Shown here piece by piece: positions 31,256 to 60,139 of a stretch of 64,000 nt of DNA. The position numbers were made by a program, and so were the translations under genes. The stretch covers positions 744,001 to 808,000 of the forward strand of contig JAUFOQ010000001.1 of assembly GCA_040285855.1 (NCBI GenBank). The letters run 5' to 3'. Source of the DNA: Eukaryota sp. GEM-RC1 (Eukaryota). Each line of letters opens with the position of its first letter. Position 1 is the first letter of the stretch. The notes beneath the pieces are model-generated. The model was not told the DNA's origin. It saw only the letters and a program-made list of their open reading frames with translations, and searched no databases.

Positions 31256-31256
31256 A

Positions 31257-33495: not shown

Positions 33496-33607
33496 CCTAC
33501 ATCCCTAAAAATGGTATAGTAAAAAGAATCACGTTTAATACATGAAGATCATTTTTTATAGATAACATTTTTTCTATACCAGACTACACGACTTCTATAA
33601 ATGTGAG

Positions 33608-37000: not shown

Positions 37001-38709
37001 CAGAAACAGAAAAAAGTGTATATTGAACTTGGTGTATGAAGAACTGGTTCTGATGATATATCTTCTTCTTTAGTTGACCGTTAGTTTGTTGTACAAAGAC
37101 ATTCATTTTAACTGATTTGTCCACCAATGATTTAACATCAATATCTAAACTAATAGAAAAATGTCCTGATATCAAAGCTTGTTGTATTATACTATTTTAC
37201 ATTAACCTTTGATAACTCTTAACCGAAATCTTCATCTTCTTTCTCATTGCTGTATTCACAATGTTCTTTACTGTGAACAATGTTATAGTGAATGGACTGT
37301 CATGTGTATAGACTTAGTAAGTGATTATATTCTAAATTTATAAAGTTCTTTTCGTCTATCAGTTTTGTATTGATTATATATATACATCTTATATATAGTT
37401 GTATTGAATGCATTACTGATTAAGAACATTTTACAAAGGTTTTAAACTGATTTTTATATAGTTAAGACTACTTCTTTTCAAATAGTTTTCAAAACAATGG
37501 AAATCGGAGGAGTAAGATTTTCGATGAGTAAGTTGTGCTATAGAACGGAAACCCTAATATTTGTTGTGATTTCTTAAGGCAGGATTCCGAAGATATAAAG
37601 AGAAGCTATGACAATTCAACAAACGCTGCTGACTTAGCAAACAACACAGATGCATTCAAAAACTTAATTAAATTCAACTGACTGTAATAAACAGAATTGG
37701 CCCTCAAAGATTGTTACAAATATGCAAGAATAGATTGAACAATTAAGAAAGACTGTATAACGGATGTAAAAAAAACAACGGACACTTTCTGGGGTCCTTT
37801 TAAAGAATTTTTGATTCATCCTTAGGAATTATTCTCATCCGCTCTCAAAGAAATCCTTCGGGTGATGATTATCATTAAACCCGTCTGCAAAATCATGAAG
37901 AGTATTAATCAGTTCTTGGGCTTCAATATCGGGTAACTCTATTCGAATGCGGTTTTCAATGAGGACTTGTTTATACTGGGTGGGCTAAACACTTATTAAT
38001 CATCAACACATGATGAAATCATTTTTACAGCACTGAGAATCGAACTCAGAACAAATGCGGCACGTGAGTAAATCCATTTTTTCAATTTGATTGATTCAAG
38101 AAACATGAGATTCACACCACGATTATGGTACTTCGAAGAAAGAACATGTCATAACAACTGGATGGCCTTCCTCAAAGACCATCGGAGTGGTTTAAAGTAA
38201 GCTAGAACTTGTGGTACAAGAGGAAGAAAGTTTGAGATCAATATTGTATATGTCTTTCGATGGACTCTCGTAATGTTCTAGTTGTTCTAAGAAGATTGTG
38301 ACGTGTAGAAATCAACATGAGTTGTTGAATGAAAGAACTGTATTATTATGGATCTAAAAGACTGAAAGTAAATCTATACAACACATTGTTACACCAATAC
38401 ATCACGTAGAAAACATTACAACACCAACTAAACTAGAAACATAGTCATGCGAAGGTAAAAAGGATTTCAGTTGGCACGCAGAATTCATGTTCAATAATTC
38501 AATTTTAGCATTCAAGCTGAAAGAACGCAAAACTTCTGTGTTGTTTTTTGTTAGCTATTGTTAGTTTTTGTAGTTCTATTCAGTGGAAGAAGGAATTTCT
38601 TCCACTCAGAACTTCAACAAAACTTCTTTGTATCAAGTGGACCTCTGAATCCACAATTCATTTTGTTTTAGCTGAAAGATATTCTATGACGTATTTATAC
38701 CGTCATATT

Positions 38710-39435
38710 CTAAATCGAGTAGAAAAATCGCAATTTCGTTTTTTCGCATCCACACTCTTGCGATTTGATGTGAGGAGAGAAGTCAAGCAGTGGAGGCAGA
38801 GATTGCAGTGGTTCGACATCTGACTGTTCGAATTCAATACAGAGTTCAGTGTCAGAACATTCTCCAGGATTACAATAAGTGTTGATCCTGGAAAGAAAAG
38901 ATTGTGAAGGTGAATGATGAATCACCCAGGTACAAGTAATACCATCAGAATTGGCCTTCTGTCTTTGGCCTTTGGCCTTTGCAGCAGGTAGCGATTTGCG
39001 TGGCGGTGCAACAATGGGAGGAGATCTAGGACGAGGAAATAGATCTGTGACTTCGGGGCAAGCAGTTACCAATCCGGAGAATGCTCCAACAGGTGGGAGA
39101 ACATCTCTAAGAACATCGTGACCTGATGCAGGTACGTTAGTGTACCGATGTACAGAGCGGCCATCCATAGTCACTGCTGTGAATGAGAATGAGGTGAACT
39201 TGTCAATACCCTGCTGTGACAGTTCATCGATCAGCGAAGTGATCACCACGTTTTTGTCCTTTCGGACCTGCTTATAATCTTTCTTCGACCCATCGTGATA
39301 GGGAATCCCATCACTGGGTCTGAAAGTCTTTGTGGGGAGGTTTGAAGTTAACCTTTTCCACAAATGGACGAGAAGGAGTGAGTTCTTCGTCAGACATGAG
39401 AGAAAGAAAAGCTTGAATGAACACGTGTACCTCAT
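38710..39435 (-). CDS. Island orphan protein (5' end uncertain)
   Basis: 241-aa ORF; conserved homologue at 20.8-21.2 kb and a C-terminal (YSI*) homologue at ~61690. Confidence 0.6.
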   Translation of the reverse strand: MRYTCSFKLFFLSCLTKNSLLLVHLWKRLTSNLPTKTFRPSDGIPYHDGSKKDYKQVRKDKNVVITSLIDELSQQGIDKFTSFSFTAVTMDGRSVHRYTNVPASGHDVLRDVLPPVGAFSGLVTACPEVTDLFPRPRSPPIVAPPRKSLPAAKAKGQRQKANSDGITCTWVIHHSPSQSFLSRINTYCNPGECSDTELCIEFEQSDVEPLQSLPPLLDFSPHIKSQECGCEKTKLRFFYSI

Positions 39436-40064
39436 CTTTTCACTTTTCAGTGTATTGGACGCAGGCCATTGGTTCCCGTATGGCCACTAAACCTGTAGGA
39501 ATGATTGAACATGTACAGCATAAAACATTAAGGAATATTTGAACAAGTTGTCATGTCAAATTTAGAGACCTTTACCTTTGGGTTACAACAAAAACTCTCC
39601 AAAATCGTGTTTGTACACACTTAAACATACCAGGATGTCGTTTAGTACAACAAGGATTGATATACAAGCAGAGATTGTGACTCTGAAAACGCAATATAAC
39701 TCTAAATATGTCAAAGAGGGAGGAATTTGAACGCCTACTCAACATGTTGTGTGCCATGTCTATACTCTATAATGTATATTGCAAAATAAAATATTCTGCT
39801 TACAGATTTTTTTTCATATGTAATGTTGGTTTTCAAAAATTGAAACCCCAAACACAAAACAACCTTAACCATATACATGTAGTCACTTATTCCACCTATA
39901 GAACTGAACTTGGTCCAACATGAGTTTTGTTAAATATGTCTATTTCTCAACGCAAACTGTGACCATTATCAATGATACCCATAACAACTGAGATAAAATA
40001 TATACAAATGTATAGTACAAAACAAGAAATAAATACCAAACTAATGCAAAATAAGCAAGAAAAA

Positions 40065-40616
40065 CTAGCTAAGGAGGATAATCCGTGAAAACATATCAGC
40101 TAGAGCATTTGGAAGAAATGTGGGCTTACTCACATGAGGTAAATATCGATCGTGATCAGAGAGTTGTTGGATTATCCACTTTATAGCCAACATATAAGTC
40201 TTTTGATAACAACAAATAAATCCGTTGCGTTCAGAAGAAAAAGAATGATGAAGAAGAGATGATTGTTCAAAAGACTTGGAATATATGATACCATACTCTT
40301 GAGGATTGTCCAAAGCAACAAAACTAAGAAAAGGACTAAAGATTGGAGCATTTTGAACCATAGAATCACGTTGTGTCAAAGTTGACTTCGGTTGTTGACT
40401 GAGACGTTTTGACAGCCAGGAAGTCGCAGAAATATGTGTTTTATGCGTAGAGATAACGAAAGAATGAGGAAGACGTTCTTTTGCAGCATCGAAACGATGA
40501 GAGAATGTCGTGAATATGAAGCTATCACAACTACACCGAAAGTGCAGACAAGCGAACTGGAAGTGAAAGCTAGATACTGTGGATAAGTACGAACATCCAT
40601 GGAAAGGAAGAAACAA
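40065..40616 (-). CDS. Island orphan protein, possibly two divergent RNase H1-N/Cauli_VI-like domains
   Basis: Homologue at 22347-22883; two ~50-aa units ending in A..W[LI]. The domain call is speculative. Confidence 0.55.
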   Translation of the reverse strand: MFLPFHGCSYLSTVSSFHFQFACLHFRCSCDSFIFTTFSHRFDAAKERLPHSFVISTHKTHISATSWLSKRLSQQPKSTLTQRDSMVQNAPIFSPFLSFVALDNPQEYGIIYSKSFEQSSLLHHSFSSERNGFICCYQKTYMLAIKWIIQQLSDHDRYLPHVSKPTFLPNALADMFSRIILLS

Positions 40617-40877
40617 AACAAAAAACAGAAGAGGAGTTAACAGAGATTTTTTTTCCTTAACCCAATGACAAATAACTCAAACCAAGAGCCCAGTAAGAAA
40701 CAATGCAGAAAGTCTACCAGAACAACAGTAACTACACGGGATGTTGTTGTGCGCAGACCAGAAAGTACTCAGACATTAGAGTTTGCTTAATATATTCATT
40801 AATTAAAGTCAAAGGTTTTAAATTCCGCCACAGAACCGAAGAAATATGGCAGATTCAGTCCACTGTGGAAGAGTAAA

Positions 40878-41570
40878 GTGACCGAGCTGAACTCCATTGA
40901 GAAGGCAATGCAAGTGCTGCACCGCAGGGCAGCTGAACGAGAGTGGAGTGTCAGCTGTACCGTAGCATCCTACAACGGTGATTACGTTGCAAATGCAGTC
41001 TCCACTCCAGTTAATGTTGGGCCAGTGGTCATGCAGAATGCTGTTTTTACGGAACACTTCTTTGACACAGAAACTAAAGACCACTTACTTGACAGGGCAT
41101 TCGATGACCCTGATTCTCTAAAACGCTTATGGAAGGCAACTTCCGCTAAAGTGCAAAATCCATCTGGGATTGACCCTTCCATTGCAGAACCCTCCGCTGA
41201 CCACTTAGAAAATGCTTCCATTACAGAACCCTCCGCAGACCACTTAGTAAATGAAGCTGAAGCTAATCATTTAGCAGCGAAACTAAAGAAATTGCCCACT
41301 ACTAAGGTTGTCCTGATCAAAGTAGACGACGTTTGGCGTCCTGCTGTCAATGGTAGCTATGTCGGTTATCATATGGACGAGTATGTTATGCTCCCAAGTT
41401 CATATGAGCTAACAGTACAAGAGGCAGGAATTAAACCACCAACGCTAATTGAAGAACACAAGGTTGAGGACACAAAACCGTGGACCGACTTGCATGAAGT
41501 TGAACTTGCAGGAACACTTCATTATCAGTGGATGAACAACAAGTGGAGAGGTATATATAACTTTCAATAA
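40878..41570 (+). CDS. Island orphan protein (frame open back to ~40803; probable upstream exon)
   Basis: 230-aa ORF with internal duplicate SIxEPSADHL; homologue at 23103-23725. Confidence 0.65.
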   Translation: MTELNSIEKAMQVLHRRAAEREWSVSCTVASYNGDYVANAVSTPVNVGPVVMQNAVFTEHFFDTETKDHLLDRAFDDPDSLKRLWKATSAKVQNPSGIDPSIAEPSADHLENASITEPSADHLVNEAEANHLAAKLKKLPTTKVVLIKVDDVWRPAVNGSYVGYHMDEYVMLPSSYELTVQEAGIKPPTLIEEHKVEDTKPWTDLHEVELAGTLHYQWMNNKWRGIYNFQ

Positions 41571-41583
41571 ATTATTCAAATTT

Positions 41584-42996
41584 TTATTCTGAACCATCAA
41601 CAAAGAATTCATTATAATATTCGTCGATATGTGAGCTGACAAAAATATCTCTATGGGAACAGATTGCTCCTACTTCAGCCAGAAGCAGTTTAGACTGTGA
41701 AAATGCAGTAGGTATATCTGTTAAAATATAACCAACTTCAGGAATCTGAGCATTAAAATCAGGTAAGGCGCCAATTCCTTCTTCAAGATATTTTCCTAAG
41801 AAATCTTTCATTTCTTGGTTGCATTGAACGAAGGTTTTAAGCTGATTAAACTGGTGAACCGGAGACAACCTTGCCACAGTTTCATTGAGCATGTTTTTAC
41901 GCTTGTTGATAAAAAACGTGAACCACTTATGACTCATAGATGTACCCGACTTACGCATAGCTGTAGCGAAAGCAATAGGTGCCTGATAGGTACACATATG
42001 AGCTAGAAGCACATATTTTTGACCATGATGTACATGATCGATGGTGTTTGCGTAAACATGAACGCCCAAAGAGCTCACATCATGTTCACATGATTCGTAC
42101 ACCGATGACAAGTGCTCCACAGTGTCATATATTGATTTAAATAGATCAATTTTGGCAACTTGATCACTTGCCGTCAGTACTGATAAGAAAGTATTAGGAT
42201 GCACTACTGACGGAGAGTTAGTATCCTCAATTTCGCTCAATAGCGTTCGGGCCAAATTTTTAATGGGAGTAATACTCCACAGATCATTGACGTTAGGAAG
42301 TTTAAGTCATATGTCCACATGTCTGATATCAGAATAAGCCTGCATGTTGGTCTTTTTTTGCCCACTTGAAAAAACTTCTCCATGGCTAAAGGCTGATACG
42401 ATGATTACTCTTAAATGGTTTGCAGGAAGAAAATAGGGAGGGCATGTGAGAAAGCAACCAAGTGGAGAGCAAAGATTGTTGATGTAAGTGGCCTTCCATT
42501 CAGGGATCGACTTTCGGGTTATCTCCATGTAGATATTGTGTTGACCCTGATAGCCTCGGAATTTAGCATCGGCAGAAGTCTTGACATAAATGTTCGGTGT
42601 AGTTCGAATAAGAGATGACGGATTTTTGAAACCCATTAAAGCGCTCGCAAAGATGCGTTGAAGTGTTAGTGGCTCATTTTCGTCGGCATGACTGTTATAG
42701 ACAAAGATACATCGTGGACCGGCAGTGGTACGGGGACGCAAATGTTGGCATTCGGATATAATCGCTTGCCGATTATCCTTGAAAAAATCTTGTTTGACAA
42801 TTGTTTTTGGATTGGTATACAGGAGAGTCGCATATTCTCTAATCTTCTTCGCAAGTTCTTCGTCGATTTCAACTTCGTCATCGTCGTCTTGTTGGCGTAC
42901 TTGTTTTCTGACACGAGAAGAACGTGTCGAGCGACGGACAGCATTGGTACTAGACAGTTGGACCTCAGGTACATCAGAACTAGGCTGTTCGGACAT
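41584..42996 (-). CDS. Degenerate CRESS-Rep-like SF3 helicase-domain protein; a single in-frame TGA at 42307-42309 separates two co-linear ORFs
   Basis: IYVKTSADAKFRGYQGQHNIYMEI..YINNLCSP..RVIIVSA aligns by eye to circovirus Rep YWK..KWWDGYHGEEVVVIDD..LLRLCDRYP..ILITSN. ORFs 42307-42996 and 41584-42255 are in the same frame with only one stop between them. Confidence 0.6.
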
Positions 42997-43352
42997 GAGA
43001 AAGAGATGATAAAAGAAATTTCACTGAAAGGGTATAGAGAAAAAAAATCACGCTTAACCCTTAAGGATGATTTTTTAACGTTAACACTTTTTCTCTACCA
43101 GACTACACGCCACATGATCGTGATCATACATGTGCATCCAGATGACTGTTAGTCGTTGTTTGCTCTTACAACTCACCAGTTGTTTACTTATAATTTGATA
43201 GTTTTCCCTTGTTGAACCAGAAATGTTAGCGAATAAATTTCTTCCTTAACCATTTGCATACACATCTGCCCACTTCTGATCATTTTAATGATGTTGGCAT
43301 TGTTGAGGACGCTGATTCTGAGATACATGAAAAGTTTCAGCTGTATGTGTTA

Positions 43353-45155
43353 TGACCTTGACCTCAGGGTCACTCAACAAAATCATCGTTTCTTCACTCT
43401 AACATGTGTTTTTCACCATTTACATACTTATACATGAGTTCTATATACATATGCAAAAGGTGATATATCAAGAACTTAAGATTCTGATAAATTTCTCTCT
43501 TTACTATACAGACTAAATGTAAAATACATATAGACTATATGAGAACATCAGATATAACTCCAAATCTTAAGTTCCTGAACTATCAGCTTTCAACAACTTG
43601 CTACAGACTATTTTTGGGTGTTCCTTGTATCAAAGATTTGGTCTAACAACACTGTGAAAAGTGGTCATTTGAGCTGCAAATACGTACCAGTGCAGTTATT
43701 TATCTACTTCTTCTTATTTGGGTGGAATATAAACCACCAATTTGTGATTCGGAAAAAAGTTAATTGAAGAATTGATATGATCTACAAATTTGAAATTTTA
43801 CAATTTCTTAAAGTGAACTATGTAACCATTTGAGTTTTAATTATACTTGGTTCATCAGCAATAGGACGCTAATAGTGTGCATTGCTTGGTTATTTTTAAG
43901 TGTGTGACATATTTCTATTCAGGAACATATAACTCATATATTCTTTGTGACCTTGACCTCAGGGTCACTCAACAAAATCATCGTTTCTTCACTCTAACAT
44001 GTGTTTTTCACCATTTACATACTTATACATGAGTTCTATATACATATGCAAAAGGTGATATATCAAGAACTTAAGATTCTGATAAATTTCTCTCTTTACT
44101 ATACAGACTAAATGTAAAATACATATAGACTATATGAGAACATCAGATATAACTCCAAATCTTAAGTTCCTGAACTATCAGCTTTCAACAACTTGCTACA
44201 GACTATTTTTGGGTGTTCCTTGTATCAAAGATTTGGTCTAACAACACTGTGAAAAGTGGTCATTTGAGCTGCAAATACGTACCAGTGCAGTTATTTATCT
44301 ACTTCTTCTTATTTGGGTGGAATATAAACCACCAATTTGTGATTCGGAAAAAAGTTAATTGAAGAATTGATATGATCTACAAATTTGAAATTTTACAATT
44401 TCTTAAAGTGAACTATGTAACCATTTGAGTTTTAATTATACTTGGTTCATCAGCAATAGGACGCTAATAGTGTGCATTGCTTGGTTATTTTAAGTGTGTG
44501 ACATATTTCTATTCAGGAACATATAACTCATATATTCTTTGTGACCTTGACCTCAGGGTCACTCAACAAAATCATCGTTTCTTCACTCTAACATGTGTTT
44601 TTCACCATTTACATACTTATACATGAGTTCTATATACATATGCAAAAGGTGATATATCAAGAACTTAAGATTCTGATAAATTTCTCTCTTTACTATACAG
44701 ACTAAATGTAAAATACATATAGACTATATGAGAACATCAGATATCACTCCAAATCTTAAGTTCCTGAACTATCAGCTTTCAACAACTTACTACAGACTAT
44801 TTTTGGGTGTTCCTTGTATCAAAGATTTGGTCTAACAACACTGTGAAAAGTGGTCATTTGAGCTGCAAATACGTACCAGTGCAGTTATTTATCTACTTCT
44901 TCTTATTTGGGTGGAATATAAACCACAAATTTGTGATTCGGAAAAAGTTAATTGAAGAATTGATATGATCTACAAATTTGAAATTTTACAATTTCTTAAA
45001 GTGAACTATGTAACCATTTGAGTTTTAATTATACTTGGTTCATCAGCAATAGGACGCTAATAGTGTGCATTGCTTGGTTATTTTTAAGTGTGTGACATAT
45101 TTCTATTCAGGAACATATAACTCATTTATTCTTTGTGACCTTGACCTCAGGGTCA
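43353..45155. repeat. Three tandem ~595-bp near-identical non-coding units delimited by four TGACCTTGACCTCAGGGTCA sites
   Basis: Sites start at 43353, 43948, 44542 and 45136 (periods 595, 594, 594). Confidence 0.95.
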
Positions 45156-45812
45156 TTTGACTTCCACTTCTAACCAATACCCTTTGAGACTTGTCCCTTT
45201 GAGACTTGTCTGGCTGAAGAACTTACAAACCTTATCTCTCTATCCCATTGTTAAATGGGTGCCAAATCCCGACGTGGTTATCTTACAGCCGGTAAAAAAC
45301 CACGTAGACTGTTTATGATAAGACAACTAAGACTGCTGGAGAACAAAATAGTACGTGGACTACAACGTGAAAGACCTTATCTTCAAATGTTTCACAGTCC
45401 CATACTACACATGTCTTTCATTCAAGAGGAAGATGTTTTCAATTATAACTGTTGTACCAGGGCAATCGATTTCAGACCTCACACGTTCCTCTGATCATGC
45501 CATACATTTAGACACATTGTCACATTTGGAAAAAAAGACAAACTTGAAACTGCAGAGCATGAGCGTTGAGTGCAATATATGTAATTATAATCATAAAGAA
45601 CAGTAAAAGATTGATCAGAAGAGATTATATGGCTACAACAACTAAAACTGCTAGAAGTATCAGTATCATTATAAAATCTATGTACAAGGTAGTTGCTTTC
45701 ATACTGAAGTCATGTAGTCCGGTAAAGACAAAGTGTTATCGATAAAAAATCATCTTCAACTGTTAAGCGTGATTTATTTTCACTATACCATTTTTAGGGA
45801 GATATGATTTTA

Positions 45813-46030
45813 CTGGCCTTGACCTCCGGGTCACTTAACTGAGTGGCCTTGACCTCCGGGTCACTTACTTTAAAAATGAGTGACCTTGACCTCCGGGTCA
45901 CTTACTTTAAAAATGAGTGACCTTGACCTCCGGGTCACTTACTTTAAAAATGAGTGACCTTGACCTCCGGGTCACTTACTTCCAAAATGAGTGACCTTGA
46001 CCTCCGGGTCACTTACTTTAAAAATGAGTA
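45813..46030. repeat. 37-bp tandem array of imperfect palindromic (lox-like) sites, 5 full units plus 1 partial
   Basis: gtgaccttgacctccgggtcacttactttaaaaatga at 45843, 45880, 45917, 45954 and 45991; shortened unit at 45813. Confidence 0.95.
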
Positions 46031-46060
46031 AATCCCTAAAATTTATTAGATTTAAAACAT

Positions 46061-46893
46061 TCAACAATTAAACGCCTGTTCAATTCCAGTAAAATCACCC
46101 ATGTCACGCGCAGCTTCAGCTATACCTTCTCCAATATAGGTAAGAGTTGTGGTACCACTCAAATGACTTAACATTTTCTTCAACGTATCCAAACGTGCTG
46201 GTTTTTCATGAGCCGGGCCACCAAATTGCCAGTAATGGTATGCAAATGTTTTCCTCATAGTATGAGTCGAAAATTTCTTCAGTCTTAACGATCTACCAAC
46301 TTCTTTGAAAACTCTAATAACAGTTTTAACACACAGAGGCTGTCGGCAGCCTAACTTCTTTTTCTCGAGTAGAATAAATAATCATTCGGAGCGACATTTG
46401 CTGCATCACAATACTCTTGCACTACAACTTTAAGCCAAAGGGAGACTTTACGGGTGACTGTAGCATTTACCCAATGTTTTGATTTTCGTTTCTTCTTTTC
46501 TTTTATAATTAAGAATGTTGCAGTTATACTGTTCTCTTTAAAATCTTTTAATCGTAACGTCAACAAATCAGAAATTCTGAGACCAAGAGCACATCCAATT
46601 TTCCAAATAGCACCATTTCGCTTTCCATTTATTCCAGGTGTCAACGCAAGAAATTCATTGTATATAACGTCAATCATATTGGGATCTTTGATTGGAGACA
46701 TTCCCTTGTGCAACTGTTCGATGCTAATATCCAAAGTACCATGATAGTTTTCATTTTGGGCTAATGAATAAGCTTGATCATCATCACAATCAGAGAAAAA
46801 AACACATTCGTCAGATGATGTTTCATCGGCATCTGATTCAATTTCAGACATGGGAATGGGATGAGGATAGGCAAAAGGGTCGTTAGAGGACAT
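46061..46893 (-). CDS. Tyrosine recombinase (phage-integrase family), one -1 frameshift in an A5 run at ~46360
   Basis: GLRISDLLTL (R), IKEKK (K), STHTMRKTFAYH (HxxR), MLSH..TTLTYIG (H, Y). Adding one A joins YLFYSR to KKKLGCRQPL..FSTHTMRK. Confidence 0.9.
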
Positions 46894-46917
46894 TGTGAGA
46901 TGATGTATGAAAAGTAA

Positions 46918-46961
46918 AATCTGAATGTGAACTTTGTTATAACAAAGTTCACATTCAGATT
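46918..46961. promoter_or_regulatory. Perfect 44-bp palindrome between divergent YR and orphan genes
   Basis: aatctgaatgtgaactttgtta|taacaaagttcacattcagatt is seen directly; its function is inferred. Confidence 0.7.
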
Positions 46962-46992
46962 CCTTCCAACTCCAACTTTTTCACAACCCTAT

Positions 46993-48159
46993 ATGAAACA
47001 TGTTAGAAAAGAAGCTATGATTAGGAAGAAGGCTCATGATAGGCACATTGTCACCACAATTAACACTTTGAGGAAGAGTGTTGTCCTCATGAAAGAAAAC
47101 TGTCCTTATGAACATGACGTTCATAGTTGCATTGGACTAGCTGATGGGTCTCTACGTCAGATAATAGGTGTGCCATTTAACCCTTGCCGGGCAACAGTGA
47201 GTGTGTATTCTTGGTATGATCCCCAATCATTGAAGTTTGCTGAAAAAAAATACCATTTCCCATCATGGATTTTGGAAAATGATATGGATGATGGTGAGCC
47301 AATCATTTTAAAAATATTGCACGATGATCTGTTCGGCCTAAGTACCCGAACGTGGCTTTTCTACTCTTTGCTGGTCGAATCTGCAGCCAACTTGACCCAT
47401 TACATTGCCTGTAATGTTCGTTGTGTAACTGCTGTGGCTGTCGATCTCCCTGCCGCACGCCAATTCCCCCCAGCCGTGAAAAAGAAACTGGACGATCACC
47501 AAAAGCCAAGCAGGGCATCACTGTATGAACTAAACCTAGCCCGCTCAAAGAAATTGGCTCTGAAGCGAAGCTGTTTCAGCCGGAACAGCAGTGTGAGCGA
47601 ATGTGATGTCAAGTTCTCTTACAGCACTGAGCATCCATGGAGTGACACTGAAGAGTGTGGATGCGATTTCCAATGGACGAACCTGGATGGGGAACTCGGT
47701 TGGATCAAAACTCAATGGAATGTGCTCACAACACAGGCTCCGAACTTTGATTCTTGGTCAAAGCAGTTGTTGTATTTGTTCCGTTTAACTTATACAATGG
47801 AATGGCTGTGGGTATTATACCTTACAGCAGATGGTGAATTGCAGTTCTTCCCAAATTTTGAGGAACTGAATGCGTTTTTGGGCACAACTCATTGCCAAGA
47901 CAATTTGGTTTCGGCTCGATTTGTGCTCAACCAACAACTTTATGAACGTTGGAAAGACCCTTCTGCTGACTCTGCTCCTGCAGTTCCTCAAACGAATTCT
48001 GCAGATATCATTCGTACTGGCTATGAAGAACCTCTTGAAGAAACAATATTGATTGAAGAGCCAGAATCCCAACAGGAGTTTAAAACTCAGACTGTAACAT
48101 TTACAGGAAGAAGTTTATTCAAAAAGAAGAAAAAGACGATAAATAAATTCAGTGTTTAA
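46993..48159 (+). CDS. Island orphan protein (~388 aa), divergent from YR
   Basis: Long uninterrupted ORF, first ATG at 46993; decayed homologue at 33060-33371. Confidence 0.75.
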   Translation: MKHVRKEAMIRKKAHDRHIVTTINTLRKSVVLMKENCPYEHDVHSCIGLADGSLRQIIGVPFNPCRATVSVYSWYDPQSLKFAEKKYHFPSWILENDMDDGEPIILKILHDDLFGLSTRTWLFYSLLVESAANLTHYIACNVRCVTAVAVDLPAARQFPPAVKKKLDDHQKPSRASLYELNLARSKKLALKRSCFSRNSSVSECDVKFSYSTEHPWSDTEECGCDFQWTNLDGELGWIKTQWNVLTTQAPNFDSWSKQLLYLFRLTYTMEWLWVLYLTADGELQFFPNFEELNAFLGTTHCQDNLVSARFVLNQQLYERWKDPSADSAPAVPQTNSADIIRTGYEEPLEETILIEEPESQQEFKTQTVTFTGRSLFKKKKKTINKFSV

Positions 48160-48222
48160 TTGTTGTATTAAAAAACATTATAAGAAAACAAATTAATAAA
48201 TCAAATATTATATAATCAGTAT

Positions 48223-50231: not shown

Positions 50232-50243
50232 GGTGAAAGAATA

Positions 50244-50253
50244 TTCCGCCAAA
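50244..50253 (-). promoter_or_regulatory. E2F-like binding motif TTTGGCGGAA in the 72-bp CDC45/E2F bidirectional intergenic region
   Basis: Matches WTTSSCSS, 12 nt upstream of the CDC45 ATG. CCGCC motifs also precede other genes here, so specificity is uncertain. Confidence 0.45.
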
Positions 50254-50303
50254 AAGATTGACTATTATCACAAGCCTGAAACTTGCACGTTTTCAATTTC
50301 CTG

Positions 50304-50975
50304 ATGCACTCTTCATCTCCACCACGCAAACAGAGTCGATTGTGTCCATCTCCTGTTGACGCATCTCTGGTAGATCCTACACGGGCGGATTACTCTTCTT
50401 CTGACCTTCCCTCCACTTCAAACACTCCTTCTTTGAGTGCTTCTACGTGTAAACCTAAAGCTGTCCCCAAACGTAAAGCTACTTTCACAGCTACTTCCAC
50501 AGCTACCACTTCCACTACTACTACTTCTACATCAAAAACTCCATCACTAGAAACTTTATCTTTACAAATTTTAGAGTATGCTCAGGTCAAAGGTTCTTTC
50601 ACCTTGAAAAACCTAGAACAAGACCTACAAGTGGGTTATAGAAGGTTGTACGATGTCCTCAACATCTTATTAACAACTCCTTTATTCCATTCCACAAAAG
50701 AAAATGGAACAACAGTCTACACTTGGTGTGATGGATGCACTACAAATGACCCATTAACCATAGCTACACTGTCCTCTGACCTGTTCCTAAGTGGCGTACA
50801 GTTGCACGAATCCATTATTAGATGCCATAAACTGGAACAAGTTTTGAGAAGTGATATGAAGAAAATCAATATTGATGAACTTTGTGCTGACTTTGTGAGG
50901 AAGAGTGAAAGTGGTTGTCCTATGCCTGAGCATATAGATGCAGTGTATAGAGACATTGCTAAGGGTTTGTGGTGA
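50304..50975 (+). CDS. E2F/DP-family winged-helix transcription factor-like protein
   Basis: SLETLSLQIL..FTLKNLEQDLQVGYRRLYDVLNIL..VYTW: the E2F/DP RRxYDxxN signature with flanking SLxxL and YxW. Confidence 0.85.
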   Translation: MHSSSPPRKQSRLCPSPVDASLVDPTRADYSSSDLPSTSNTPSLSASTCKPKAVPKRKATFTATSTATTSTTTTSTSKTPSLETLSLQILEYAQVKGSFTLKNLEQDLQVGYRRLYDVLNILLTTPLFHSTKENGTTVYTWCDGCTTNDPLTIATLSSDLFLSGVQLHESIIRCHKLEQVLRSDMKKINIDELCADFVRKSESGCPMPEHIDAVYRDIAKGLW

Positions 50976-51126
50976 GTTTGTTTAATTTTCTTTAATATTT
51001 AATAAAAATTCTTATCCACACATTCATGTCAATGCTTAACACATACATGGCTAATGAGAACTAACACATGTATAGATTTAAACTCCAACTGTTGAAACAA
51101 ATTTGTTCCCACATAAATCACTGTGA

Positions 51127-52203
51127 ATGTTACCACTTCTGAAACGTTCAAGAGATTCAGGAGCTCTACGAGAGGACATGACCTTGGTACGAGGTGATGT
51201 ACCCAAATCTCGGTCAATTAGCATTCAACAGTCCTTGAAAGGGCTGATCTTACTGCACTTGGCTAGAGGTTTCTTCTCTGACTGTTGCAACATTGATGCC
51301 ATCTCACAGATGCCAATTTTCTTCTACATGTTCGGCCTTGTCAGTAGTGATTGGGTCTTCTGTACTGAAATAGCTATCAGGGTATTTCTCGAAACCCATA
51401 CTTTTCGGTATACTCCAGGTGAAGTTGATCCTGGCTTTCTCAATGTAGTTTCCTACTATGGTGCTACTCTTCATTTTATTACCCTTTCGTTACATAACCG
51501 CTGGGAGAATGTACACGAAGATGACCGCTCCCTGATCCTCGCGAACGCAACTGCAGTGACAAAAATTTACATGTCTGTGGATGATGACTCAATGTTAACT
51601 TGGATACAGTCAACAGCCAACGAAATGTTCCCTCGCCTTCAACAAGTACATTTATTAATTCTTAACAACATTTCCCATACAATGTTGATTGAAGTCTTAA
51701 GTGAAAGTACCAAAATCGTCCGAATTGATTTGCAAAGCAAGTATCGCGAAAGAATTAATCTGAGATTAAATATGTTCTCAACAGTTTTACCAGTGAATAC
51801 TAGTTTAACTCATATCAGCTTTACGCGTAATTCTATTGGAGATGATGGTGCTCTTTTATTATCCAGAGCTTTGGAAAAGAATGCCACTCTAAGAAGTCTT
51901 AATCTCAGTAACAACTTTATTGGCGACTTTGGTGCAATTAACCTCTTCTTGTGTGGAATGGGAACACTCACTATTTCAAAATTATCTACTCTCGATCTAA
52001 GTCGTAATAATATTACCAATTCCGGTGCTGTTGCAATTGCTCAATTCCTAAGACAGAATTTTACCTTACGTTCTTTGGATCTTAGCGAAAACCGTATTGG
52101 AGTTCACGGTAAAGAATCACTGTTGCATCTCAATCAGTATAAGGTAAATCCAATGACTCTGGACGTTGCCAAACAAAGACCTGTACGAGAGCAATTCTTA
52201 TGA
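51127..52203 (+). CDS. RI/NLRC3-like LRR protein
   Basis: C-terminal NxTLRSLxLSxNxIG repeats; intact 358-aa ORF. Confidence 0.85.
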   Translation: MLPLLKRSRDSGALREDMTLVRGDVPKSRSISIQQSLKGLILLHLARGFFSDCCNIDAISQMPIFFYMFGLVSSDWVFCTEIAIRVFLETHTFRYTPGEVDPGFLNVVSYYGATLHFITLSLHNRWENVHEDDRSLILANATAVTKIYMSVDDDSMLTWIQSTANEMFPRLQQVHLLILNNISHTMLIEVLSESTKIVRIDLQSKYRERINLRLNMFSTVLPVNTSLTHISFTRNSIGDDGALLLSRALEKNATLRSLNLSNNFIGDFGAINLFLCGMGTLTISKLSTLDLSRNNITNSGAVAIAQFLRQNFTLRSLDLSENRIGVHGKESLLHLNQYKVNPMTLDVAKQRPVREQFL

Positions 52204-52349
52204 ATGTAATTGTATTAATATAATTATCATTAGTACTCAATATTTTCTAAAATAAATATAACTACAAGCAATAGACTGGAAGTAGTTAGATGGGGATAGA
52301 TATATAGATGTTGAACACAAATTTGTTGTTGCCACTAAAATCTGTGCAA

Positions 52350-53317
52350 ATGTTCCCACCTTTGAAGTGCAGCAGAGATGAGGATGATCACATGTATGTA
52401 TCAAACCCAAGAGATCCATCTAAACCAAAAACTATTGATCTTCAAGAGTCTTTGGTGGTATTGATACTGTCACACACCGCGAACCGTCTTCTGTGTCAAT
52501 GTTCATGTGAATTCCTGTGTTCTGCTAAACTTCCTTCTTTCTTCAGGAAGTTTGGATATCTAAGCGAGACTTGGTTTGATCTCGCTAGATGTTCTGTAAA
52601 GAGATTCTTTTCCAACAACACCTTTTCACTTTCTGCTCCTTTACACTCTTGTTTTTTCCCCGTAGCTGCGTTCTTTTCAGCTAAGATACAGTCTGTGAAC
52701 TTATTTTTGTTTGACAGTATCGAAAAGCAAGAGGTTAAGGACCGCTGTTTAATCTTGGACAAGGATAATACATATGCTGTGGGACAAATTTATACATGTA
52801 TCAGATGTGATGATTGTCTTCCATCTTTAAATCTTTCTACAAATTTATTTCCCCGTCTACAACATCTGCATGCTCGTGTGTTTCCAGAGGTAACTGGCGA
52901 TGTCTTGTATCCTTTTTGAAGTCTAATTCAACTATTACCAGTCTTTGTCTTTACACAAAGGGTCGCTTTTCCAGATGTTTCGGAATGAAGGATGTATTAC
53001 GAGGTAATATGTCTTTGCTTCATGTTGATCTTTCTAACAATTTAATTGATGACAAGGAAGCAAAGTCTCTACTTCAAGCTTTAAGATGTAATTCTACTTT
53101 GAGAAGTCTCGACCTCAGTTGTAATCTGATTGAGAATTTGACTGCTGCTAAAATAGACGAATGTTTAAGTACTAACAGAAGTTTAAGAACTCTTGATGTT
53201 AGTATGAACTACATATCCGCAGAAAATGCTGCTGAGATGGCCTTGTATGTGAAATTAAAGAAGTTGGCATCTTTGATTTCTATTGATGTTTCTGATCAAG
53301 AATTATACATTAGTTAA
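52350..53317 (+). CDS. RI/NLRC3-like LRR protein, tandem paralogue of 51127-52203, one frameshift at ~52880
   Basis: MFPPLKCSRD vs MLPLLKRSRD, FPRLQ shared; LRRs lie in the -1 frame (52814-53317). Confidence 0.75.
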
Positions 53318-53423
53318 TTTATAAAATTTATGTTTAAAATATTTACTAATAGATAGTTAATAGAACCAATCCAATGTCAAAGAGAACAATTCGTCTCAAC
53401 ACAACTAAGAAACAAATAGACAT

Positions 53424-54477
53424 TTATTGATCCCTAAACCGTCTTCCAAATCGTTGCTGCAGTTCTTCATGTGTTAAAGAAGCATTTAAATCTTTAACTC
53501 CAGATAGTAAGAGTTCAAGAACAACAATATCATTTGACATCTTAACCAAAGCATCATCTACTTCATTAATAACCTCGTCATCAATTAGAATAAAATTCTG
53601 AATTCGAGAGAATAGATCATTGTATAAGTAAAAAGGAAACTCTTTCGAAATGAGTGTAACAAGGTAAATAACTATAAGAGAGCAATGACAGTGATCATTA
53701 GTGATGGCAAAAGGTTGGTATGCATTGAAATAAAGGTTACTGGAGAATCCAACATTATTAGTGACATTAGACTTGGTGTATTCAATCATCTTCTGAACTG
53801 GCGATAAAACAAGTGAATGATTTAAATGTCCAGAAGAATAAATTGTAACATAATATTCCATGTGAATAAGTCGGAATTTTAAAACATGCCAAGACGCATT
53901 CTTAGAACAAGGATTGGCATCCAAAGAAAAAAGCAGTGAAGATTGTACGACCAGAGTACAGCTCATTCATAAAAGTGTGGCCAACAGAAGTACTGAGAAA
54001 AGAATACGTATTTTGCAAAAAGGAAAGACAGCTGGTCACAGGAAGATACAAAGTTTCCAAAGAAGAACGTACAAGAAAATAAATTGACATGTCAATCAAA
54101 GGAATTGAAATGTGATCTTGTACAAGGAGCTGATGAAGAATAGATCTCGGCTTGAACAACTGAGAAATATCCAAGATAAAGGGATAAGTCTTTCTAACAA
54201 TGGGGATGATGGATTCAATGTTGAATCCAAGAAAACCATCACCTTTACGTTCAACGAGAAGATTGAAAGTAGTTGAATTAAGTAAAAATTCTTGACGATG
54301 ATCATAGATATTCTTAGATTCATCAAAAGTTTCTGAATGTTGCTGAAAGTCCAGAAGATACAAAGGTCGCCGTGCGTATGAACTACGACTGGATTTTGCA
54401 AAATACTCACCTGATTTGGTGTATTGGATGAAAGATCCAATTTCCACATAGATGGTGGTAGGAAGGTTTATGTACAT
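53424..54477 (-). CDS. Island orphan protein, probably one gene split at a T6 run (~53930)
   Basis: Overlapping 191-aa and 180-aa ORFs; no recognisable motif. Confidence 0.5.
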
Positions 54478-54555
54478 GTAGAAAAGAAAAGTGAACGAAA
54501 TGAACTAATTTGTTATATTGAATCATGAGAAAAGGAAATTCAGTTGCCTTACACC

Positions 54556-54951
54556 ATGTCCATCCCAATCTTTGATAAGCTACTGGATGAGTTTCGATCT
54601 GTGACAAACAAAACAGGTGATGTATTCAAAATTGTTTATGACCGGAACGGTGGAGCTTCATGGTTTGTTGGACTGCCTGACATTGAGGGTGTGGATCGTA
54701 CGACTGCCCCAATACAGGTATACTTCCAATACGTCATTAACCAACATTTAATCCCTGCTCTTGAATCGAATGATGTCGAATCTTTCCCTGGTGCTGTGTA
54801 CCTTCTGCACTTTTTGGCCAATTCAAATTCTGAATTGGCAAAGAATTCTGAAAAGAACATTACAGGCCATGTAATGGGTAAAGTTGGCGGAGAATACGAC
54901 AAGCAAACGGTAAAAGAGCGACGTTCGGATACTTATTATACATCTGAGTAG
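54556..54951 (+). CDS. Island orphan protein (~131 aa)
   Basis: Open frame with ATG, divergent from the 54477 gene, protein-like composition. Confidence 0.5.
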   Translation: MSIPIFDKLLDEFRSVTNKTGDVFKIVYDRNGGASWFVGLPDIEGVDRTTAPIQVYFQYVINQHLIPALESNDVESFPGAVYLLHFLANSNSELAKNSEKNITGHVMGKVGGEYDKQTVKERRSDTYYTSE

Positions 54952-55625
54952 AATTTAAAATTATTTCTTTGTACTGGATCCTGCAGATATACCTTTAATT
55001 TTCTGTAGATAACGAGTTTCGAAATTTTGAATAAAAAATTGGAATCAATTACTACAATTTTTGATCCAATATTCTTGATTCGTAATCGTCTAAATATTCT
55101 CTCTTAATTTTAAAACCGACAATTTCGTCGATATATAGATTTTTTGCCAACTCCAATGAATAAAACACTACATGTACCAACTTCAAATTTCAATCCACAT
55201 TTGTCAGGTTCATAGATAATTTGGTCTGCAAGATATAAAGATTTGTTAATTGGAGGACCCTTGAGATTTTTGATTAGTTGATCTATATGTTGCGCAGTAA
55301 TAACTTCTGGACTTAGGTGCCAGTCTAGCTCAAGAATTTGTCGATGAATATCTGCAATTTCCTTTTGATCTTCTTCTATTGGAAATGAAACATGATAATT
55401 ACACTTAACTTTTTTTGTACGCGTCAAATTCCACTGTAAATTGGCGCAGGGAATTTAGAGTAATAAAAATCTTATTAATTTATTTTGAATGTGATACTAT
55501 CAGTTGACTGATAAGTTTTGTACAACACTCTTATTTTTTTTGCAGATCTTCAACAGATCTTTATCTAAGGAAAAGTAGTTTCAACAACATTGTTGTTCAA
55601 GAAGACATGAAGAAAGAACAGTCTT

Positions 55626-56100
55626 CTATGAGTCTTCTATGAGATTCCCCTCAAAGTCAAATAGGTAGCTGATATCGTCAGCGGATTGCGAACGATCATG
55701 TGGTTTATCACACATTAACGTTGTTTTTTCGGATTTAGTAAGATGAGGTCCCAGGTATTCAATGATTACCAAATTACCTTTTAAGTCGATCATACTAAAA
55801 ATTCCCGCATTGGCTCCTGGAAAGGAAGAAGGGCCAACATAAATAGGCACAAGAAGTTGGGTTAGATGCATCAATTGACCATAAGGGATCGACGTAACTT
55901 CCTCGACTGACATTCCAAAAGTACGAAATAGGATTTTTAGTATTTTTTGTCCAAAGTTCTGCTTTCCTCCTGGCTTCATCACAAGAAGTAACAATGCCAG
56001 TGTACTCCATTATAATTATTCTAGGTGGGAGCATTATGGTGACAAAAACACCTAATCCTGCATCTTTAATGGTGGACGGCTTCACCTCGAGAGGAACAAA
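55626..56100 (-). CDS. SET-domain-like protein with two tandem SET N-terminal halves (frameshifted)
   Basis: VKPSTIKDAGLGVFVT..IIMEYTG..SYFW..IDAS and YVGPSSFPGANAGIFS..IIEYLG..SYLF. The ORF track labels 55795-56085 as + but the translation is from the - strand (GTG at 56085, TAG at 55795). Confidence 0.65.
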
Positions 56101-56328
56101 AGCTCCTCAATTATTATAAAAACAATACAACGCTACAAATGTTCTCTTTTTTTTGGCAGAAAGCAGTGACCTAGCTAATAATGCATGGGGTCTGGAATTC
56201 TGGTCCCGGATCAATCACTTCTTGAACTTGATTTTCATTAATCATTTCTGGCGCTACAGATTCTTCATTAAACGAATTTAAATAATCAGAATATTGTAAC
56301 ATGGGATTAGAGAGTGCGTCTTACATCT

Positions 56329-56649
56329 TCAGCAACTTTCTTGAAGTATTCGTTGAAACTGATCTAAAGATTGTACATTAAAATTCGAAAATCTAAATGT
56401 AGGAGCATGAGAAGCCAGATCAAATGTTATTCTTTTTCCTTTAAACAGAAGCATAAATAAATTTTCAGGTCCCCCTAATTCATTTGATCTAACATCTCTA
56501 GAATTTTTGGAAATTCCTTTAATTTTCTGTAGATAACGTTCCGTGAAGTTGTCTATCATATAAAATTCTCTCCCGGTAAAAGGATGATTCGGCTGCTCAA
56601 AGAATTCAAAACGAGCAACAGTCGCTACAGGAATACCTTGTTCTATCAT
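56329..56649 (-). CDS. Small island orphan; paralogous fragment near 54960-55430
   Basis: RYLQKIKGIS-encoding sequence (ttaattttctgtagataacg) is present at both ~54995 and ~56520. Confidence 0.4.
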   Translation of the reverse strand: MIEQGIPVATVARFEFFEQPNHPFTGREFYMIDNFTERYLQKIKGISKNSRDVRSNELGGPENLFMLLFKGKRITFDLASHAPTFRFSNFNVQSLDQFQRILQESC

Positions 56650-58709
56650 TTGATCTTCTTTTTCGGTAAAATTTCGCTCGAGATTTGCTGTTGTTGGTAC
56701 ATTGTTGGATGGCGAAAAGAAACTGTGGTTGACTGGAGGCGATCTTCATTCTTAATTTTGTTGCTCTCAAAAGAATTCAGCTTGTACAGTTCAATCCAAT
56801 GCTAATAGTGGCACTAATAGTGGAACTTCGGGTAGTTTTCCTTTTGCTAAGTAATTACCACGCTCGGAAATCTGTAGACAGTTGGATTGTTAACATAGGT
56901 AGTGAACTTTACAAGTTTTAAATTGAGTACAGTAAAACCTTTACATCGAAAACCTCTTCATCAATAGTGAAACTTTTCTTTAAATGCCGAATGCTGCATA
57001 TTCTGTTTACGAGAAATAAACCGCTATTTCTAGTTCACTCTATAGGATATCTTCAAAGATCATTCGGTCCCAAACGTGATTTTTAACTATAACTATAACT
57101 ACATTGGTTTTAAGTAATGCGCAAAACACGGCCAAACTATTATATGTGTGTCACACTGATTAAAATTTTACCGTACCGTGTGATTGCAAAATTTAGTATT
57201 AAGTGTTTTGTAATTTAGAAAAACAATTTTTTTAATGTATAAAAAGACAAATTGGAAAAATTGTTACTAATAGTACTTCAAAAATGACTTTGACTGCCGA
57301 CCAGTGGATTTCATTGCCATTAGTCATTACCTCGAAACAATTATCCATTGACTTCATGAAGAGGTTGTCATTCACAATGATACAGTAGAGTTGGAAAATC
57401 CAAACATAATGTGAGTTTGCAGATCAGAAAATGAGGTAGTACAAGTTGAAGAAGTAAATCCAGAAGAAGATTGATCCGAGTAGATCCATTGAAAAAATGG
57501 TACATTCATAAGCATCCGCTTTCAATTAAGAATTGTATTTTTTAGTGAGTTGCTACAATAAAACATGTATACTAGTGTACTTGTCCAAGAACTGTCTTTT
57601 TTACTGTGCTTAGAAAGCAAAATAACCAAGTTTGACGGATATTCCTTTACCTTTCGAAATTTTAAGGTCAAATTGAGGAATGACTTAAAATAGATTCGTC
57701 TGTTGAAATGGTGAAACTAATTACTAACTGCAATCTCATTTGGTCTGTATATTTACCACTTCATAACCATTTATGATACCCGGATAAATAACAGTTGTTC
57801 GTCATTATCATTTTCATTCCTAGAACTTCATTGAATCAGAATACCTTGTGTTCCACCTAGAAAGCTATTAGACTCTCGAATGTATAAATGTTCACTAGGG
57901 TTCCAGATTTCTGAAGCGAATCGAGTCCCATTACTGTCATGTTCATCGTATATGACTTTAATGCCATCAACATATCAGTTACCTAACGTTTTGATTTTTT
58001 ACGCAAGAGTCTGCTTCCACAGCTAAATTATAGTACTTAATTGATTCATCAGTATTTTGTTCCAGGTAATCACCATTCCATAACAAACACCCCATTGTAT
58101 CCATTACATCTGCATTTCCCTTGAAAATTGCAAACCTCCCTTGTATGTGTTTGATACTAAAAACGAGCTGTAGACTTTGTGAGGCAGCAGGAATTAATAG
58201 AAGAACTTGTTATCTCAAAGAAATGATGTCCCTGATTCTGCTAGAAAAGTTGCAAAAGAACAAGCGACTGGGGATATCGCGAGTTTTATGGTACGTGTTT
58301 TCTTCCATTTCAAATACACAGCTTCTCTGTCATTCGATGTAACCATAACACGCACATGGATCACCTGAAAACAAAAACACATGCTTCTGTATAACAAGCA
58401 CGAACACTTCCTCCATGTCGCTATGGGATTTGCTCTTTGGGGAAACATCACTGACTTTTCTGACTGTTGATTTGGATGTTCTACACACCAACTATATTCG
58501 GAAATGAGATTCTGCTGTTGGAATGTGGGGTGATTTCACTTCAGCAAGCACAGTATTATGACCGTTTGTTATATTTTTGTCACATGACCAAAATTTTGGT
58601 GTTTGTCTTTTGTATATTTATTCATTTGGTATATTTTGTTGTTTATTTAGGTTGCCTCTTGTTTTATTCGATACACAACATTCTCGAAAAGTGAATATTT
58701 ATTATAGAA

Positions 58710-59410
58710 GTTCTTAAAAGAGCAGATTTTGACTTCCTAATCTATTATACAACTGCTGCGGAACCTGCTGTTGATTCTGCTGAGGCACCTGAAGTTCCTG
58801 ACCTGACTGTGGCTGACCTATATGGGTCCGATGCCGAACCACTTGATCAGTCAGGTCACACTGAAGATTTCTTGTCACTATACAGAGATCTTCAGGCCAC
58901 CTGGACCAGCTCCCAGTCACTGGTTATATCAGAGTGTCCAGTGCTGTCAACGCCTCAACCTCGCCGTCGTTCTCTATCACCTCCTACCAAAGCCGAGTTT
59001 TTGGCCAAGCTGAAAAAGCAGGATTCCAACAGCTAGATTTTAGTCAATTAAAACTCTATTTAATTGACTACTATGATAACAGTGTGCTCTATCCAGCATT
59101 TCAAGTTCAACCCGATGAACTTAGCTTGGATGCCGACCAAACCACCGAATTCTCCGAGTGGTATGCCAACAGGGGCCCAGAAGATGTTATTCTCTACTTT
59201 CTACCAGAAGTAGCAGATGTTCTGGAAGTCGCGGATTTTGATTTCTTGATCTATTACGCCAAAAAAGACCAGCTGATTGTCTTTGATGATGAATCAGCAA
59301 CCGATATCGTGCCAAATATGAAAGGTTCTGCACGTAGAACGCGTTCTAGTAAAAAGAGTTTTGTAACTCAATTTTTAAATGGTGAAAATCCATATTTAGA
59401 TTTGCAATAA
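58710..59410 (+). CDS. Orphan protein, possibly PWWP/Tudor-like C-terminus; -1 frameshift at A5 (~59015)
   Basis: Duplicated ADFDFLIYY motif (~58720 and ~59230). Adding one A joins LAKLKK to AGFQQLDF. Confidence 0.45.
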
Positions 59411-60139
59411 ATTTTGAATAAATGTTTTTATTGTTTCTATTTTTGAAATATATTTGATTTCACCATATCTTTTGTTGATGTTGTTTATATACAACTTATA
59501 CGCAACTACCGAGATGTTGTTTACATACAACTTCGCATCTCTGTAGATGTTGTTTATAGAGAACTAGGTTGAAGTTCTGAATGGATAAAATCCTTCATCC
59601 ATCGAACAGAACTACAAGAAGATGAATTGAACAAAACAAACACATAAGCGAAGTCTGGAATTTGAGTTACCACATTGAAAATTTGAAGGGCAATTCAGCG
59701 TGTCATTTTTCCTTCTTCGAATTCGAATTTCTGTCTCTTCCTTTCAAAATAACGCAGTGTTTACAGCAGTGAACTTGCTCATTCTGTTTTGTTAACCATA
59801 CACTGTGTGGTATTGCAAATAGTACTTCGCCACAGTTGCCATTGGAATGTCTTTAGAAAATCAGAAGAATCGAGGTTACGTTGCTTACCAGAAAACATGA
59901 AATTGGGAATTTGCATTACAGTGGATTACGGTAATCTGACGTAAAGAGAAACAATTGAAGTGAATGTGACCACTGGCGGTATTAAAACTTTAAGTCTATC
60001 CGTTTTTGTGAGATCACGACTCTTTATGTTTGCTCTCACTAAACTGTTTGTATTACAATTTTGCAATAAACGAATGGACTGTAAAGAAGTATCAAATTTT
60101 TAGGTATGATTCACGATTCTAAATTTCTGATTTTCTGCC

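Follow-up and report, generated by a model that had tools for sequence, protein, structure and literature searches.

Polinton-like viruses (PLVs) switch between pPolB polymerase and helicase–primase modules, and some of them have no detectable replication gene. Polintons/Mavericks are marked by a target-site duplication, Cryptons by a Crypton-type tyrosine recombinase (YR) domain, and DIRS elements by reverse transcriptase (RT) together with RNase H. The core of the PLVs is described as a major capsid protein (MCP), a minor capsid protein (mCP) and an ATPase, with pPolB, a superfamily 3 (SF3) helicase and a bacterial-type YR recurring as modules (PMC4642659; PMC10120064; 10.64898/2026.06.19.733378). 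Such insertions are given as 15–30 kb long (PMC10120064), and the YR is reported to adjoin attachment-like sites (PMC4642659, PMC11296320). Fungal Starships, for which a circular intermediate is reported (10.64898/2026.09.21.753150), are defined by a 5' captain YR of the DUF3435 type (PMC12134995). The present work concerns a 64-kb stretch of the genome of Eukaryota sp. GEM-RC1 (contig JAUFOQ010000001.1, positions 744,001–808,000; hereafter the window), in which an island of about 21 kb (38,566–59,620) carries a YR next to arrays of a 20-bp site, together with genes for CDC45 and an E2F-like protein. All the results are based on this window and on protein searches. In our judgement the balance tips slightly towards the island being an integrated member of a Polinton-like family with a YR, lacking a polymerase and apparently also a capsid, whose CDC45–E2F cargo was likely captured from the host lineage.

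A preliminary description of the locus had reported about 21 kb of tightly packed genes, and the island is indeed dense: open reading frames (ORFs) of at least 100 aa fill 68% of it and 90% of the interval 46,060–56,800, as against 35–45% of the other three segments of the window and 2–6% in shuffled sequences. A Pfam scan of 29 ORFs gave matches for both halves of the YR, for CDC45 in four pieces, for a single E2F domain and for two leucine-rich repeat (LRR) genes. The YR, the recombination-like site arrays, the Cdc45, the E2F-like gene and the LRRs named in that description were all recovered, the YR, CDC45 and the second LRR gene (LRR2) being frameshifted as assembled.

The place of the island among described elements follows from a pPolB linked to its relatives, which had been missed before. 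In a relic at 20,768–23,724 (relic B), a broken pPolB precedes homologues of three island ORFs, which keep the order and orientation that they have in the island. The pPolB of this relic (20.8–22.1 kb) has no Pfam match of its own and aligns with that of a second relic, C, over 142 aa (40%). The frame holding polymerase motif C runs on into the homologue of island ORF 38,710 (38,710–39,435, minus strand; 43% over 65 aa, E 6e-12, and 46% over 59 aa), which may be the pPolB tail or the next gene, and then come the homologues of two family orphans, one at 40,065–40,600 (minus strand, two frames; homologue at 22,347–22,847, 36% over 131 aa) and one at 40,803–41,570 (plus strand; homologue at 23,046–23,724, 32% over 118 aa and 29% over 75 aa). 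Relic C (61,670–64,000, minus strand, extending past the window end) has a pPolB (61.8–63.7 kb) with several stops that matches DNA_pol_B_2 at about 62.4–63.0 kb (E 3e-18, above cut-off, in one of 12 read-through frames). Directly upstream of it lies a homologue of the island's SF3-like gene (63,823–63,969; 49% over 49 aa), and downstream a 24-bp stretch corresponds to the end of ORF 38,710. Since the pPolB of both relics adjoins homologues of island genes, the left arm of the island is, to judge from this linkage, a member of a pPolB-encoding family. For this arm the proposal of a mobile-element family that has a YR together with site arrays of its own is supported; the claim of a wholly new kind of element is not, since by its linked pPolB the family belongs with Polintons/PLVs. 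In the island itself the position of pPolB is occupied by an AT-rich gap of about 0.6 kb, and the pPolB queries found no match in the island beyond the 65-aa downstream stretch.

The SF3-like gene (42,307–42,996, minus strand) appears to encode a degenerate helicase domain of the CRESS Rep type. Its structural matches in the Atlas are CRESS Rep/RNA_helicase with TM scores of about 0.5, and its Atlas features (0.92) place RNA_helicase on 21% of the cluster; these agree with the earlier assignment as an SF3-helicase-like ORF, against which stand the lack of a Pfam match and, in a motif scan, of a HUH domain and a Walker A motif. The ratio of nonsynonymous to synonymous substitution (dN/dS) between this gene and its copy at 31 kb is 0.28 (170 codons, dS 0.32), which points to purifying selection on the gene in its degenerate form. 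The metamonad Carpediemonas is reported to have geminivirus-like Rep genes, which are unexpressed (10.1101/2021.03.14.435266), and these provide a precedent for CRESS-derived genes in metamonad genomes.

The YR (46,061–46,893, minus strand) is small, with a catalytic domain only, and has one frameshift near 46,360. It matched Phage_integrase in two frames (E 8e-6 and 2e-5, each slightly below the Pfam cut-off) and phrog_216 of PHROGs in two frames (E 9e-11 and 2e-13); it is related at about 27–40% to integrases of Firmicute phages, mostly those of Streptococcus, Clostridium, Bacillus and Listeria (5 and 160 records), and carries what we take to be the R, HxxR, H and Y motifs. Next to it lies a largely non-coding, control-like region (43,027–45,793) flanked by an 81-bp inverted pair (43,027–43,107 and 45,713–45,793; 85%). 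Within this region three 595-bp units, 99% alike (43,353–45,155, plus strand), are bounded by four copies of a 20-bp site of the form TGACC–10 bp–GGTCA; two of the seven differences among the units are homopolymer indels. Six more site copies follow at 45,814–46,011 (plus strand), mostly at 37-bp spacing and with 7-bp inverted arms around the 10 bp, the last of them ending 50 bp from the YR stop codon. The site thus has 10 copies in 43,353–46,011 and five in the relic at 33–35 kb, where the 595-bp unit is single and lies between two sites (34.6–35.3 kb). An ORF at 45.3 kb has a dN/dS of 1.27 and is therefore probably non-coding. The 20-bp sites are candidate YR binding or recombination sites, or iterons, and the presence of a site at each junction of the amplified 595-bp units is suggestive of recombination there. 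The core spacers of YRs are 6–8 bp long, which the 10-bp spacer of the site exceeds, so that iterons or plain homologous recombination are possible. A metagenome scan for the site returned one locus (L001), which consists of a simple GGTCAA repeat, shows no similarity beyond it and was rejected as a chance match.

The CDC45 gene is full-length (48,223–50,231, minus strand), with a predicted 32-nt GT-AG intron, three single-base frameshifts and a 69-nt internal duplication. Its four frames span positions 1–19, 57–281, 301–412 and 458–590 of the 624 of the Pfam model, with zero premature stops in the aligned frames. The sole full-length relative found is P0001, a protein with the source name Eukaryota sp. 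GEM-RC1 (45% identity, E 8e-49), which aligns over nearly the whole length at 35%, 46%, 52% and 40% by segment. This search was word-seeded and covered proteins of 500–2000 aa, giving one match among 2,518 candidates; P0001 as a query returned itself alone among 7,994 scored candidates and no CDC45 from any other eukaryote. P0001 allows two readings. Should it belong to the same genome, the island CDC45 would be a second copy of long standing whose frame has stayed open at 45% identity, an argument for function; should it belong to a sister species, the searches revealed no further full-length CDC45 of the host, an argument for the island gene as the only copy.

Head-to-head with CDC45, the start codons being 72 bp apart, stands a gene for an E2F/DP-like protein (50,304–50,975, plus strand) with a single winged-helix domain containing RRLYD (E2F_TDP, Pfam E 4e-8, above cut-off; best PDB row E2F8, E 0.016). 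The 72-bp gap holds the E2F motif TTTGGCGG (50,246–50,253, minus strand), one of two matches to TTTSSCGS in the window against 3.7 expected; there is no overall enrichment, and by arithmetic a match would fall within any particular 72-bp stretch with a probability of about 0.4%. The same core is described in the E2F element of MYB (PMC5622404), an E2F site is reported to regulate human CDC45 (PMC5716687), and Cdc45 is reported to be limiting for replication initiation in human cells (PMC4889307). No report of a virus- or transposon-borne Cdc45 was found in literature titles and abstract openings, a scope outside which most subscription journals fall, and unreported cases of Cdc45 cargo could lie in the gene tables of PLV surveys. 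The CDC45–E2F pair is enclosed by element-derived DNA: a 388-aa ORFan (46,993–48,159, plus strand), itself head-to-head with the YR, lies 64 bp from the CDC45 end, and on the other side an 84-bp patch of it recurs in antisense at 54.9 kb (82%), at the 3' end of a small ORF (54,556–54,951, plus strand). The spacing of the genes around CDC45 is 64–152 bp. The 388-aa ORFan also has a 90% nucleotide fragment at 33,094–33,371 (dN/dS 0.62, 91 codons), and its sole match among 1.84 billion representatives is itself.

On the favoured reading, the YR would recombine directly repeated 20-bp sites, excising or integrating a circle, and the three 595-bp units, where the relic has one, would be a trace of recombination at the sites. 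Since the island has no polymerase and its SF3-like protein no Walker A motif, this copy would rely on the replication machinery of the host or on help from another copy. In the least certain step, the E2F protein would switch on CDC45 via the motif between the two genes and raise the level of this origin-firing factor, and the host CMG (Cdc45–MCM–GINS) helicase would copy the excised DNA. We regard such a replication-hijack role of CDC45–E2F as plausible but doubtful, and at the lower edge of that same doubt we would place the full scenario of a capsid-less integrative element derived from self-synthesising PLVs, in which pPolB and an active helicase were swapped for a self-regulating CDC45–E2F cassette commandeering the host CMG. 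If true, the loss of pPolB and the gain of a core CMG subunit with its regulator would represent a third route, that of direct use of the host replisome, and a small-element parallel, by gene capture, to the DNA tumour viruses that force S phase.

Several observations weigh against the integrated-element reading. The YR, CDC45 and E2F genes are absent from all three relics within the window; no capsid, packaging ATPase or RVE was found among the island ORFs in Pfam, PHROGs and NCBIfam; and the GC, GC at third codon positions (GC3) and codon use of the island are the same as in host-type genes. All 13 window proteins found in the collection (six of nine queried, six of a further 10, and one more), nine of them from the island, are single-member 90% clusters. 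With one full-length CDC45 relative found, a second host copy is hypothetical, and the E2F motif could be that of a native CDC45 promoter. The triplication of the 595-bp unit could be explained by homologous recombination between the 20-bp repeats. The ends belong here as well. The candidate ends of the island are two of the four copies in the window of a hairpin of about 50 nt (E at most 3e-17, no fifth copy in a profile search; z −2.2 to −4.6): an imperfect palindrome on the left (38,566–38,620, plus strand, z −4.4) and one inverted to it on the right (59,563–59,619, minus strand, with two compensatory pairs), so placed as to enclose 21,054 bp. These two are 78% alike over 86 bp and could therefore originate from different family members; the covariation is weak (two of 19 pairs among four sequences, equally high in 28 of 500 shuffles). 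The copy at 32.4 kb stays homologous for about 500 bp further left, outside the left hairpin, which makes this hairpin no more than a candidate terminus, and a target-site duplication was absent at four boundary choices. A hairpin-like stretch at 20.6 kb, considered as the end of relic B, was rejected, as the hairpin profile did not recover it.

The alternative that survives best takes the right arm (48.2–56.8 kb) for the host's own sole CDC45 with a neighbouring E2F, a YR/pPolB-family element lying beside it, the 59.6-kb hairpin coming by chance from an unrelated family member and the frameshifts being uncorrected sequencing errors. We consider it improbable, although it deserves to be taken seriously. 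It accords with the single full-length relative (and, if P0001 is from another species, with the finding of no other full-length annotated host CDC45), with the intron, the E2F motif and the host-like codon use, and with the mismatch between the hairpins. It also accords with the state of the genes: each of five breaks (three in CDC45, one in the YR and one in LRR2) is explained by one missing base, four of them lie in runs of at least four identical bases and the aligned frames have no premature stops, whereas in the neighbouring relics nine of 15 indels exceed one base and stops are present. The pattern agrees with long-read error left uncorrected or with very recent slippage, and the single-base frameshifts may be sequencing error or early decay. 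Further frame breaks occur in the island at 40.4, 53.9, 55.8 and 58.9 kb. The host is likely a metamonad lineage (the free-living Skoliomonas), whose published assemblies are described as built from Nanopore reads corrected with Illumina and as 28–55% repetitive (PMC11316075). On the other hand, three frameshifts in the 2 kb of CDC45 are unexpected for an ordinary single-copy essential gene when the frames of two nearby host-type genes run uninterrupted for 431 and 722 codons. Element-derived DNA flanks CDC45 on both sides at the close gene spacing given above, and what stands next to it are ORFans and duplicated fragments rather than housekeeping genes. The count of one relative, moreover, comes from word-seeded, length-limited searches in which P0001 retrieved itself alone, and a P0001 encoded in the same genome would make the island gene a second copy, 45% identical to it. 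If the island CDC45 is nevertheless the host's only copy, an essential gene lodged within viral relics would still be of some interest.

It is unlikely that the element is real and its CDC45, E2F, LRR and SET pieces are passive, decaying cargo with real frameshifts and no replication role. The frameshifts in the YR, CDC45 and LRR2, the half SET domains, a broken stretch of 1.8 kb and the surrounding transposable-element debris speak for it, as does an importin-alpha-like gene likewise duplicated and broken nearby. Yet the CDC45 remains similar to P0001 over nearly its full length and free of stops in the aligned frames despite 50–60% divergence, and the E2F, the first LRR gene (LRR1), the SF3-like gene and the 388-aa ORF are open.

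More unlikely still is an endogenous PLV with capsid and ATPase genes hidden among the orphans, too divergent for recognition. The minor capsid family of PLVs is described as poorly conserved (PMC4642659), metamonad Maverick/PLV capsids were, as reported, confirmed solely by structural modelling (10.64898/2026.06.19.733378), and the capsids of entomopoxvirus PLVs were initially missed by HHpred (PMC11296320). Two orphans were folded here as single-sequence models, the 388-aa ORFan and ORF 40,803 (pLDDT 33.9), and both gave pLDDT<35. Against hidden structural genes, the largest orphan, the 388-aa ORFan, has no Atlas feature match; no major or minor capsid matched in Pfam, PHROGs or NCBIfam; and for an A32-like ATPase there was neither a family match nor a Walker A motif in stop-free stretches of at least 70 aa beyond position 19,000. 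The preliminary description had likewise recognised no capsid or packaging ATPase. Scans of viral contigs with the YR, pPolB, an SF3 alignment and the site pattern, and of metagenomes with a CDC45 alignment, returned no relative. On the favoured reading the island is PLV-like in its integration, yet we do not class it as a PLV, since the search for an ATPase was negative and that for capsids undecided. Bacterial contamination is rejected because of the intron, CDC45, E2F and a host-like composition (the window is eukaryotic, at about 36% GC, with no compositional step at the island).

The remaining genes of the island are mostly orphans. An ORF without a credible family match (41,584–42,306, minus strand) precedes the SF3-like gene. 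Beyond the E2F gene stand the two paralogous LRR genes, about 30% alike (51,127–53,317, plus strand), with LRR_6 in both and one frameshift in the second, then an orphan in two overlapping frames without a credible match (53,424–54,477, minus strand) and two tandem partial SET-like segments (55,626–56,106, minus strand). The last are weak: all 14 PDB rows listed are SET methyltransferases, as the earlier SET-like assignment would have it, with a best E of 0.2, the N-terminal half only and no Pfam match. A heavily broken stretch (56,800–58,600) gave no credible Pfam match in any of its six reading frames; a second SF3 gene (58.2–58.5 kb) and a hAT relic (57.2–58.5 kb), suggested there by presumed motifs, proved unsupported. 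Orphan ORFs with a short repeated motif follow (58,695–59,410, plus strand). Short internal duplications are frequent over 41,176–59,556 (repeats of 39, 15, 69 and 33 nt), and further duplications comprise the two LRR genes, the two SET halves, the motif repeated at 58.7 and 59.2 kb and a patch common to 56.5 and 55.0 kb. No Rfam match was found across 30–64 kb.

Of the two stretches previously taken for syntenic, decayed relatives, both are related to the island, and order is kept in relic B; the one at 31,245–35,479 (relic D/E; 82–91% nucleotide identity, with the SF3-like gene, five sites and two hairpins) is inverted, rearranged and not collinear. In relic D, a gene at 31,824–32,380 without a Pfam match lies between the SF3-like copy and the hairpin, in the position of island ORF 38,710, and relic E is interrupted at 33,600–34,100 by a small insert resembling a miniature inverted-repeat transposable element with TACTCGAGTA-rich ends. 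The two pPolB relics share a 93% identical patch (62,215–62,348 and 21,448–21,581), their proteins being otherwise about 40% alike, and a second copy of that pPolB motif region lies at 61,829–62,089; both features are apparently products of recombination between family members. The intervals 17,275–20,043 and 60,137–61,662 form a segmental duplicate (83–93%) containing the 5' end of a RING–kinase–LRR gene and the importin-alpha-like ARM gene, which is whole in the first interval but disrupted in the second. Behind each copy comes a pPolB relic in convergent orientation, and the ARM gene may be either cargo or a mere insertion site. An intact 722-aa protein at 15,301–17,469 shows RING-like, kinase, coiled-coil and LRR parts by eye from the translation, and a related LRR array lies at 7.6–8.1 kb. 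Elsewhere in the window there are a hAT transposase relic (25,906–26,756; Dimer_Tnp_hAT, E 3e-14) flanked on either side by an array of 62-bp palindrome-rich repeats, a MUS81-like winged-helix fragment (13,093–13,554, E 0.008), a weak gag-like ORF (26,984–27,538, E 0.14) and an ORF at 29,410–30,210 which we take to resemble the C-terminus of a long interspersed nuclear element.

Compared with known systems, the island resembles CRESS Rep elements, Replitrons and Helitrons in that its SF3-like protein is closest to the CRESS Rep helicase and that hairpins stand at its candidate ends; it differs from them in its degenerate helicase motifs and in the lack of a HUH endonuclease motif or a Viral_Rep match. 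With Cryptons and DIRS elements it shares a predicted YR-based mobility in a eukaryote, but its YR is a short, phage-type catalytic domain, and no Crypton-type domain, RT or RNase H was matched by Pfam among the island ORFs. Like fungal Starships it is a YR-bearing element with host-like cargo; unlike them, it is non-fungal and linked to pPolB, and its YR is internal and matches Phage_integrase only, not DUF3435. With Polintons/Mavericks, including those of the metamonad Trichomonas vaginalis, it shares an organellar/viral-type pPolB, here in the sister relics, the size, as measured between candidate ends, and the likely metamonad host lineage, whereas the island has no RVE integrase, pPolB, long identical terminal inverted repeats or target-site duplication. 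From PLVs it is set apart by the lack of a recognised MCP, mCP and A32 ATPase, by an SF3 gene without a Walker A motif and primase domain, by the internal position of the YR and its sites, 7.5 kb from the nearer hairpin, and by the CDC45 and E2F cargo. At the same time it is like the YR-type PLVs (the PgVV/OLV11-type and the entomopoxvirus-associated ones), as these are described, in a length, between its candidate ends, within 15–30 kb and in carrying a small bacterial-type YR beside repeat sites (PMC4642659, PMC10120064, PMC11296320); it also resembles them in its mosaic accessory genes, in an SF3 helicase-type gene, here degenerate, and, through its linked relics only, in the pPolB that some of their members carry.

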